Shown here: one piece after another, positions 32,301 through 35,300 of the stretch
Layout of the letters: each line of letters begins with the position of its first letter
How positions within the stretch are numbered: the stretch's first letter is position 1
Virus record (IMG/VR): IMGVR_UViG_2541047777_000011
Length of the DNA stretch: 37,505 nucleotides
Direction: 5' to 3' (one strand)
Origin: a virus
Lineage: Duplodnaviria > Heunggongvirae > Uroviricota > Caudoviricetes
Position numbers: made by a program

Positions 32301-35300
32301 CCCACAGGCTGCCCGGTGTTTTCCGGGACTACCCGATCGGCTTCCCGCTGAATGGCGGAATCGGCTTCAGGCTGCTGCAGTTGGTGTGATTGCTCCGGCC
32401 TTGCGGTCATCACCTGCTGCACAGCGCCCGAATCGGCTTTCAGCGCATACGCTGAATCGGCTTCCGGTGTCGTGCCTGCTGGCTGACCAAGATTGACGGT
32501 CTGAACATCCCCTGCCTGGTTCGTGGCGTTTTTTACGCCATGGACCATAGTGTTTTGATCTTCTTGATCTGTATCTTTATCTGTATCTTTATCTGTCGTG
32601 ACTCGTCGTGACATGTGCGTGACATTTCGTGACGCGCCGTGACAATCGCCATTTTGTTCCCGCTTTCTTTCCCTCTCTCGCTGCGCCCTCTTGCGCTCTG
32701 CAGGAGATTTTGCGGTTTGCGAAATATTGCCGTTGTCCTCTTTAAGCACCTGGCGTTTTTCCCATCCAGTGATTAAATCACCATCAAGTACCCGCCCCTG
32801 CATCGTCTGCAAAATTGAATCAATTACCTCTTCTGTCACGTCGAGCGCACTTGCCAAATCTTCTGTCGTGACATCAATGTGACCTCGCGTGACATTTCGT
32901 GACGCGCTCACCAGGAGGTGGATATACACTGCCATCACTGTTGCAATTGGCTGCCCTGACACCCTGGCAATTGTTCGCCACTTAGGGTCATTTGGCATGT
33001 CATGCCATAATCTGAGCCAGGCGTTAGCCATACTCACCTCTTCTGATACCGAATCTTTTTACTCACGAGTTGCCGGAAGCGATTCGATATGGCTATTGTC
33101 AGTCAATGTACTGCCACAGCATTTCCTGCCGGGCCACCACGGTTCATCTGATTGAAACCGGCGATTGCCACTGCGACAAAATCATCAGCGTCTCTCACCA
33201 GTCGCTCCCGCGTCTCCACCAGCTCCCGAAAATAAGCTGAACTGTGGCTGCGCATTCTGGCCACCAGCAAAGGTGGCATTGCCTTTTCGATCGCTGGTAA
33301 CAACGCCTGAATTTTTTCAACTGCATCAGGGGTGTCTTTCTCTACCCAGCGGAAAATTTTCTGGGTATTGCGAGCCAGGGCTTCCGGATGGCTGTCGTCA
33401 TACAGTTCCGGGAACGTCATTCCCAGCTCGAAATAAGTCCGGGCTATTTCAGCTGCTGGAACTTTCTCACCGTCTGGATACGCCCAGGCATTCATTGCCA
33501 TGCGGATGTGTTCATGCTTGATTTTCATGAATCAGCTCCGGTGCATTTGATGTGTTAACCTTGAATCCAACAGGTAAACCGTCGGTTGGGTTAGGATAAA
33601 TATCAGGGCGAATTTCATGCGGGGTAACTTCCCACTTCATTAGCTGACATAACGGAATTACCTGCTTTGGGGGAACGTCAAAGCTAAACCATTGCCAAAC
33701 AGTCTGTTGAGCGACCCCCATATAACGACCTATTTCAGCTTGAGTGTATTTCTGCCTAATTTTTTCGCGAGTGCTATCTAGCATTTTGCTCTCCTCTAAA
33801 AAACTATAAGCAAAGCCTACAATAAAAAACTGTACACAATCAACAGTTTTTTATTGTGATGCTTTTAACAGTATTTACCTGTAAAATTGAATAATGATGA
33901 ACGCCCTAGAAGTATCTATGTACAGAATCAGCAAGCTTCTTCAGGAAACTGGATGGAGCCAGGCTGAGCTTGCCCGTAGAATTGGTGTGACACAACAAAC
34001 TGTTCAACAATGGGTCAGCGGTAAGGCTACACCTAAAGCCTCAAGTTTGGATAAACTGGTTGAGGTTACAGGGCATCCATTGCATTGGTTTTTATTGCCT
34101 CCTGAAGAGGGGGAGCAAATTTTCACCCCTGACACGATGAAAATTGGTCCTCGTCAACGCGAACTGCTCCAGGCTTTTAGTGCGTTTCCAGAGGAAGACC
34201 AAGAAAAAATGCTTCAAGAAATCAAAGACAAGAAAAAATCAATGGAAGAAACCATTGCCCGGTGGTTGGCGGCACAAAAAAGCCGCCGGGCGTGACCACA
34301 GTACAAGAAGAGGAGTTATGCCATGAGTACAGCCCTTTCTCCGATAGTTTCAGAATTCGAAACTACCGAACAAGAAAACAGTTACAACGAATGGTTACGC
34401 GCTAAAGTGGCGTCAAGCCTTGCAGACCCTCGTCCCTCAATTCCACATGATGAGGTAATGGCTGAAATGGAGAATCTTATTGCTCAAATTGCTGTAACTA
34501 ACAGGAGCGAGTAATGTTACCCATTTTGTGGCTACCATCTGCTCGCGATGATTTGCGTCAGATCGTAGCCTATATTGCTAAGGAAAATATTCCTGCAGCA
34601 CGCAGACTAAAAATACGGATTGAAACGTCTGTTTTAGCCCTCTCTGAGCATCCATATCTATATCTGCCAAGTGATCGAGTATCCGGTTTGCGGGAAATTG
34701 TGGTTCACCCTAATTATATCGTTTTGTACCGAGTAGCAACTTCAAGCATTGAAATTGCAAATATTGTGCATGCCCGCCGACAATTTCCCTTCCCTATCTG
34801 AACTGAACAATTTTCACACTCCCTCATTCGAGGGAGTTTTTTTGCCCAACACAACAATTAAAAACTGTTGACACAAAACAGTTTTTAATTGTAGATTATT
34901 TCCACTACCCACCCCGCCCCACAGAACGCAGGGCAATACTTCGAGTTACCCGGCAGTGGTCAGGGGTTAAGTAGCCAGCCCGAGGCGTAAGAACATGACG
35001 GCAGGGTTCAACTTTAACTATGCAGCAGGTTTTTGTTCCGCTCCCCCGGCGTTAAGGGGAAATGAGGTCAGCATGGATACTATCGAGCTTGGCAACAACG
35101 AATCTCTGGTATGTGGAGTATTCCCCAACCTGGACGGAACGTTTACCGCGATGACGTATACCAGAAGCAAAACGTTTAAAACGGAAGCTGGCGCGCGTCG
35201 CTGGTTAACCAGAAACACTGACTGATGAGGTTGACGATGGAATTTAAAGATTTACCAATGCAATTCCAGGAAATGGCAGCGAATATAGTTCGTTCCCAAC

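Follow-up and report, generated by a model that had tools for sequence, protein, structure and literature searches.

In TA (toxin-antitoxin) systems of the classical type II design the antitoxin contains a DNA-binding domain and the operon is autoregulated (PMC8630535). The paaR2-paaA2-parE2 locus (RAE2) of the cryptic prophage CP-933P (Sp12) of Escherichia coli O157:H7 forms one operon, and PaaR2, YdaS and YdaT are the analogues of CI, Cro and CII acting at PRM, PR, PL and PRE (PMC8630535); its paaA2 and parE2 genes are described as those that 'replace rexA and rexB' (PMC9986795). PaaA2 has no DNA-binding motif and is degraded by ClpAP and ClpXP, while ParE2 associates with the nucleoid and induces the SOS response, its molecular target not being established (PMC8630535). 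The PaaA-ParE complex adds partial repression, and PaaA antitoxins are specific for their cognate toxins, with no cross-neutralisation between PaaA1 and PaaA2 (PMC4803016). The RAE2 locus stabilises a mini-F plasmid through post-segregational killing, and its authors proposed that it guards the immunity region from rearrangement (PMC8630535). Here we analyse a related gene pair in a stretch of 37,505 nucleotides of viral DNA (Caudoviricetes; IMG/VR record IMGVR_UViG_2541047777_000011), referred to as the window. An initial annotation had placed at 34323-34801 a RelE/ParE-family TA pair, co-transcribed with a CI-like repressor in the rexAB position and possibly involved in phage exclusion or prophage stabilisation. 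We propose that the pair belongs to a three-component type II PaaR-PaaA-ParE operon in the immunity region of a Qin/CP-933-like lambdoid E. coli prophage, with addiction as its likeliest effect, and assign this reading a probability of about 0.88. Its direct basis is the identity of the genes, the fold of the toxin, the anatomy of the operon, the palindromes present as repeats, purifying selection and the position in an exchangeable cassette.

The operon is composed of the following elements, from its candidate promoter to its end.

33882-33887, plus strand: candidate PRM-like -10 hexamer TAAAAT, read from the sequence, 6 nt 5' of the repressor ATG.
33894-34295, plus strand: PaaR/DicA-type immunity repressor of 133 amino acids, with an N-terminal XRE helix-turn-helix (HTH) and a conserved C-terminal domain.
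34323-34514, plus strand: PaaA-type antitoxin of 63 amino acids without a DNA-binding domain, assigned through Pfam PaaA2 and PDB 3ZBE/5CW7.
34514-34801, plus strand: ParE-family toxin of 95 amino acids, assigned through Pfam ParE_toxin, 5CW7_B and its predicted fold; translationally coupled to the antitoxin via TAATG.
34818-34844, plus strand: intrinsic terminator (hairpin 34818-34837, then a T run) at the end of the repressor-paaA-parE operon.

The two open reading frames (ORFs), the acidic one of 63 and the other of 95 amino acids, together with their TAATG overlap, match exactly those initially annotated. The antitoxin has an isoelectric point of 4.41 (11 Asp and Glu versus 4 Lys and Arg residues) and the toxin, which is basic, one of 9.86. 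In the junction, at 34512-34516, the antitoxin stop codon TAA (34512-34514) shares one nucleotide with the toxin ATG (34514-34516). Each gene is preceded by a Shine-Dalgarno sequence, GAGGAG (34310-34315) 7 nt 5' of the antitoxin ATG and AGGAG (34503-34507) 6 nt 5' of that of the toxin. The repressor gene lies on the same strand and its stop codon is 27 nt upstream of the antitoxin start; a sequence scan detected nothing resembling a promoter or a terminator between the three genes. The strong terminator initially annotated directly after the pair is indeed present 16 nt 3' of the toxin stop codon, as a hairpin ACTCCCTC-ATTC-GAGGGAGT whose 8-bp stem contains 5 GC pairs and whose loop has 4 nt, with a folding energy of -13.9 kcal/mol (z = -2.7 versus shuffled sequences), and it is kept in the second copy of the locus in O157:H7 (L009, see below). 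The 27-nt gap, the 1-nt overlap and the single terminator after the toxin make a compact repressor-antitoxin-toxin operon. Of the claim that the pair is co-transcribed with the repressor, the uninterrupted gap and the terminator placed only after the toxin stood, and the transcript itself is expected from the homologue.

In comparison with a diverged allele, the ratio of nonsynonymous to synonymous substitution rates (dN/dS) was 0.052 for parE and 0.058 for paaA, values obtained with synonymous sites near saturation. Both ORFs are under strong purifying selection, and hence they are real genes and not chance ORFs.

The antitoxin matches Pfam PaaA2 (PF21217) over the full 33-position model at residues 16-48 (1.1e-21; 76.9 bits, cut-off 27), and no other domain was found in it by the Pfam scan (E <= 0.01). 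It is 74% identical over 54 aligned residues to the crystallised PaaA2 of E. coli O157:H7 (PDB 3ZBE/5CW7; E 1.5e-22). An overlapping match, 96 bits to the 45-position NCBIfam model NF050103 ('RelB family antitoxin'), covers residues 5-49. The toxin matches Pfam ParE_toxin (PF05016; 2.6e-15, 57.2 bits, cut-off 23) and, across residues 1-93, shows 67% identity to the ParE2 of E. coli O157:H7 (PDB 5CW7_B; E 5.6e-37). Its AlphaFold model, built from 50 homologues, has a mean predicted local distance difference test score (pLDDT) of 91 and was superposed by Foldseek on ParE2 with a template modelling (TM) score of 0.95 and a root-mean-square deviation of 0.8-1.0 Å. The initial annotation had staked its toxin on the prediction of a RelE/ParE fold, and it is this fold that the model adopts. 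Taken with the homology to crystallised PaaA2 and ParE2, the two Pfam matches bear out the assignment as a TA pair.

The family name leaves two branches to be considered. A toxin of the RelE branch would be a ribosome-dependent mRNA interferase, and such an identity could be suggested by the 'RelB family' name of the NCBIfam antitoxin model, by the relatedness of the folds and by RefSeq. The locus of the window is 99.9% identical to loci of extraintestinal pathogenic E. coli (ExPEC), e.g. IHE3034, where RefSeq labels the genes 'RelB family antitoxin' and, going no further than the joint family, 'RelE/ParE family toxin'. However, NCBIfam RelE_StbE (TIGR02385) gives 25.1 bits, under its cut-off of 27.9, whereas ParE_toxin clears its own by far. 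In the structural ranking ParE toxins come first (TM 0.75-0.96; 0.75-0.83 for those other than ParE2), with RelE, YoeB and YafQ at 0.54-0.67; moreover, the closest characterised homologue is nucleoid-associated and SOS-inducing (PMC8630535). The RelE-type identity was rejected on the sub-cut-off model and on the ranking of structures, and we regard it as extremely improbable. By sequence and predicted structure the toxin is a member of the ParE branch; of the initial 'RelE/ParE-like' label the family and fold were retained and the RelE branch was not.

All invariant positions of the family are retained in the toxin alignment. Codon 51 (34664-34666) encodes Leu, in YLYLPSD, where nearly all relatives among the matches listed have Pro, in YLYPPSD; Leu51 is also present in P0001, the representative of the closest toxin cluster (99% identical). 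ParE2 itself is not among the 120 matches listed in the toxin homologue search, and the O157 paralogues were found by DNA searches.

This unusual Pro51Leu could also be taken as a sign that the pair no longer functions and is decaying as a remnant in a cryptic prophage, as could the state of the IHE3034 prophage, which combines its almost identical immunity region with a frameshifted integrase and a truncated dicB. Decay would nevertheless be difficult to reconcile with two intact ORFs, each with its Shine-Dalgarno sequence, with a dN/dS of about 0.05, with the complete set of invariant positions or with an allele kept at >=99% identity in 45 complete genomes. We therefore give a remnant little credence and retain a preserved PaaR-PaaA-ParE operon as the preferred reading.

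The CI-like repressor annotated directly upstream of the pair proved to be an HTH_3/XRE protein homologous to PaaR2, which is itself a CI analogue. It matches Pfam HTH_3 (1.7e-13), weakly Phage_CI_repr, and NCBIfam DicA (4e-14) under the cut-off of that model; the Pfam scan found HTH families only and no S24 peptidase domain. The comparison with PaaR2 was made through the CP-933P-type phage Evi (LR597642), whose ParE is 100% and whose PaaA2 is 98% identical to the O157:H7 proteins. The regulator upstream of them begins with MQKKE, the experimentally sequenced N-terminus of PaaR2 (PMC8630535), and, together with the identity of ParE2, this identifies the Evi regulator as PaaR2. The repressor of the window is 42% identical to it over residues 37-133 (BLASTP, E 5e-21), the last ~45 residues being highly similar and residues 1-36 unaligned. 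When a structure of PaaR2 was sought in the PDB with the repressor as query, only generic HTH domains were retrieved, e.g. that of the 434 repressor.

No Shine-Dalgarno sequence precedes the repressor start and TAAAAT lies 6 nt from its ATG; for these reasons its mRNA is probably leaderless, like the transcripts of paaR2 and cI (PMC8630535). A strict sigma-70 scan detected neither PR nor PRM in the region of the right operator (OR), and a relaxed scan gave nothing convincing there; alignment with the PL copy is what suggests the PRM -10 hexamer and a PR promoter.

The operon is surrounded by the remaining elements of an immunity switch.

33103-33528, minus strand: YdaT-family regulator, putative functional CII analogue (Pfam YdaT_toxin, 7.4e-10), 95% identical to YdaT of phage Evi.
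33512-33784, minus strand: YdaS-family HTH protein, putative functional Cro analogue, divergent from the repressor (Pfam YdaS_toxin, 1.6e-09).
33518-33535, plus strand: YdaT operator (OM-like) at the ydaS/ydaT junction, TTGATTTTCATGAATCAG, matching the published TTGATTN6AATCAA with one mismatch.
33819-33857, no strand assigned: OR palindrome ACAATAAAAAACTGT-N9-ACAGTTTTTTATTGT, with 15-bp arms that are 100% complementary, in the 109-bp repressor/ydaS intergenic region.
34854-34897, plus strand: left operator (OL) palindrome (34854-34892, 16-bp perfect arms) with a PL-like promoter (34868-34897).

The gene order, ydaT-ydaS opposite repressor-antitoxin-toxin-terminator-OL/PL, is that of a lambdoid immunity region of the published CP-933P type, and the same layout was found in loci L002-L006 and L009. 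The role of YdaS as Cro analogue is taken from PMC8630535 and that of YdaT as CII analogue from PMC8630535 and PMC9986795. The YdaT operator is the sole match in the window (0.16 expected by chance) and is perfect at the equivalent position in Evi, Tritos, O157 L009 and L004; by analogy with PMC9986795, it would mark a PRE-like alternative promoter reading towards the repressor-TA operon. The OR and OL palindromes are 82% identical copies, OL lying just 3' of the terminator, and by analogy the repressor would bind to both. The PL-like promoter, TTGACA-18-TAGATT (10/12 positions), was the only promoter-like match in the 1.9 kb scanned; it lies inside the OL palindrome region and reads towards ydfA-dicF-dicB-kil. 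PaaR2 and YdaS repress PL933P, its analogue (PMC8630535).

The sequence, the fold, the gene order and the place in an immunity region that characterise a three-component PaaR-PaaA-ParE type II TA system are all found in the window, with toxicity, neutralisation and ClpXP/ClpAP-dependent killing expected as in RAE2; the dN/dS of about 0.05 lends these predicted activities indirect backing. In the model that we propose, one lysogenic transcript would carry the CI-analogue repressor, PaaA and ParE. It would start at the PRM-like promoter, probably without a leader, or at the ydaS/ydaT junction from a PRE-like promoter activated by YdaT, and would stop at the terminator before OL/PL. PaaA would neutralise ParE by wrapping around the toxin and, having no DNA-binding domain, would leave transcription to be set by the repressor, YdaS and YdaT at the OR/OL palindromes. 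By homology, PaaA would be labile, as a substrate of ClpXP/ClpAP, and ParE stable, so that loss or replacement of the cassette would leave free ParE, of a nucleoid-associated, SOS-inducing, gyrase-poison family, to poison the cell. Addiction would in this way stabilise the immunity region and the prophage against deletion or heteroimmune recombination. Co-transcription, binding of the repressor to the palindromes, toxicity, neutralisation, proteolysis and post-segregational killing are in each case predicted from characterised homologues. The initial suggestion of a role in prophage stabilisation agrees with the post-segregational killing by the homologue (PMC8630535) and would apply to the allele of the window by homology.

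Several points weigh against this proposal: (i) no ParE2 activity was seen in single-cell assays, whichever state the switch was in, and the role of RAE2 is a proposal only (PMC8630535); (ii) the regulatory details of CP-933P may not transfer to the window, since the DNA-binding region of the repressor and the operators differ; (iii) the YdaT site of the window has G where the perfect inverted repeat ends in A, and (iv) the toxicity of the toxin could be altered, because it is only 67% identical to ParE2 and has Leu51 where almost all relatives have Pro.

The distribution of the cassette was searched by blastn over 5,426 complete E. coli genomes. The TA cassette gave a match of any kind in 842 genomes; 62 records matched at >=95% identity and 533 at 80-90%, and an RAE2-type locus was present in 633 genomes. 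With respect to phages Tritos and vB_EcoS-640R1, homology of the window ends at ~33539 and resumes at ~34907, and the interval between contains, in these phages, different cI alleles without a TA pair. The pair is therefore located inside an exchangeable immunity cassette, and the comparison of sequences indicates that it rides in PaaR-type cassettes as an optional passenger. It is exactly at this cassette's left recombination boundary, ~33539, that the YdaT operator is found.

O157:H7 records show two places in the cassette search, and strain 2002-3211 holds both RAE2 and a copy of the type of L009 (ECP19-2498). By elimination, the L009 copy is probably paaR1-paaA1-parE1 of CP-933M. Another candidate for ParE1 of O157 (P0013, in L004) was ruled out, being a further allele present in other genomes (repressor 67% and toxin 82% identical). 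The L009 copy is of the same immunity type as the window and shares with it a common gene order, nearly identical operators and terminator, a repressor 97.7% and a YdaS 97.8% identical, but its PaaA is 90.5% and its ParE only 84.2% identical. At the DNA level the identity is 95-99% over ydaS, OR, the repressor gene and the 5' part of paaA; at 34395-34794 (L009:2600-3000), covering parE in full and paaA in its 3' part, it is 73-84%, and downstream ~90%. The patch 34395-34794 constitutes sharply bounded divergence, or recombination, at the toxin and the tail of the antitoxin.

The rexAB position attributed to the pair was confirmed: it follows a CI-analogue repressor with no intervening signals and is closed by a terminator just before an OL/PL-like operator-promoter, as in the homologue (PMC9986795). 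The likeness to rexA and rexB is one of position, for no homology to RexA or RexB was found and the Pfam scan of both ORFs yielded only PaaA2 and ParE_toxin. The slot, and expression together with the repressor, raise the alternative that the cassette, expressed in the lysogen, serves mainly against phages, much as RexAB does. A superinfecting phage would halt host transcription or trigger proteolysis, PaaA would be lost, and ParE would kill or arrest the cell before the phage cycle ends. Many type II TA systems are now tied to phage defence (PMC10440598), and a toxin and antitoxin tail that have diverged to 73-84% beside a repressor at 95-99% would fit an arms race. The same local divergence is equally explained by insulation of co-resident paralogues, given that PaaA1 and PaaA2 do not cross-neutralise. 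Among the defence models of PADLOC-DB 2.0 no family matched the antitoxin or the toxin, and the repressor gave generic HTH matches only; a catalogued anti-phage defence system was ruled out for lack of a PADLOC match. No exclusion phenotype of PaaA-ParE is reported in PMC8630535, PMC9986795 or PMC4803016, nor was one found by one full-text literature search, and the phenotype that was tested in the homologue is post-segregational killing. Taking these points together, we consider a mainly anti-phage function unlikely, if worth keeping in view. The narrower claim that paaA-parE acts by abortive infection or exclusion against superinfecting phages, and that its divergence stems from an arms race against triggers or inhibitors of phage origin instead of mere insulation of paralogues, is more doubtful still. 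Addiction through a PaaR-PaaA-ParE operon remains the explanation that we favour.

Other features of the prophage were recorded outside the operon; the RNA scores are from Rfam.

26169-26478, minus strand: cluster of four tRNAs, Gly(TCC), Thr(TGT), Lys(TTT) and Met(CAT).
30412-30587, minus strand: full-length sok antisense RNA (120.5 bits), adjoining the hokD annotated in the identical IHE3034 locus.
30655-31341, minus strand: ORF corresponding by offset to an IHE3034 prophage gene annotated as epoxyqueuosine reductase QueH.
36155-36206: DicF small RNA (76.7 bits).
~36276-36359: dicB, following DicF and annotated as truncated in IHE3034.
36390-37238: ORF of 282 amino acids, 'Rha family' in IHE3034 (RefSeq), with Pfam Ash at residues 14-108 and Rha at residues 120-204.
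36441-36517 and 36542-36629: isrK (66.6 bits) and C4 antisense RNA (73.8 bits), in the N-terminal third of the 282-amino-acid ORF.

The hok/sok pair gives this prophage a second TA system, one of type I, and the QueH-type ORF, located between hok/sok and the replication genes, is a metabolic passenger of an unusual kind. The 'Ash' part of the 282-amino-acid ORF may consist of RNA genes, not coding sequence, and form a P1-like C4/antirepressor control unit; in that case the true start of Rha would lie further downstream.

The family has already been published, with its structure, its control by the prophage switch and its location in the rexAB slot, and RefSeq lists the present allele as a type II TA pair. 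Particular to the window are an immunity specificity unlike that of CP-933P and a diverged toxin allele with Leu51. The locus can be regarded as a natural variant in which a conserved block, formed by the C-terminal domain of the repressor, PaaA and ParE, is joined to another DNA-binding region, another Cro analogue and other operators. The TA cassette accompanies several immunity specificities, and the window provides a second immunity type for two open ideas, namely protection of immunity regions by the TA pair from replacement through recombination, or phage exclusion.

Comparison with known systems places the locus closest to RAE2. Both have the order HTH repressor, PaaA antitoxin without DNA-binding domain and ParE toxin, in a lambdoid immunity region with OR and OL on either side and ydaS-ydaT opposite, and they share YdaT (95% identical) and its operator, the C-terminal domain of the repressor and the lack of an S24 peptidase domain. 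They differ in the toxin (67% identical), in the antitoxin (65-74% identical, with its C-terminal 15 residues unrelated), in the N-terminal DNA-binding region of the repressor, in YdaS (19% identity) and in the operators, the palindrome being ACAATWAAAAACTGT in the window versus GTTTAGTAA in CP-933P. Because the DNA-binding region, YdaS and the operators are different, the immunity specificity of the window differs from that of CP-933P. The canonical ParD-ParE systems of RK2, Caulobacter, Vibrio and Mycobacterium have in common with the window the fold of the toxin (TM 0.75-0.83) and the antitoxin-then-toxin order, but their antitoxin has a DNA-binding domain and autoregulates the operon, whereas in the window the antitoxin has none and regulation would fall to a separate phage repressor. 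In lambda cI-rexA-rexB, as proposed here, the lysogen expresses the accessory genes on one transcript with the repressor, initiated at PRM/PRE, and a terminator precedes OL/PL; RexAB, however, is an exclusion system, while the phenotype tested for PaaA-ParE is addiction. Finally, the K-12 cryptic prophage Qin (dicC-dicA-ydfA-dicF-dicB) shares the backbone, its DicA being 28% identical to the repressor of the window over 111 residues (E 2e-12) and its ydfA and dicF regions 88-94% identical at the DNA level, but no TA pair separates its dicA from ydfA, and it represents the 'empty slot' arrangement.

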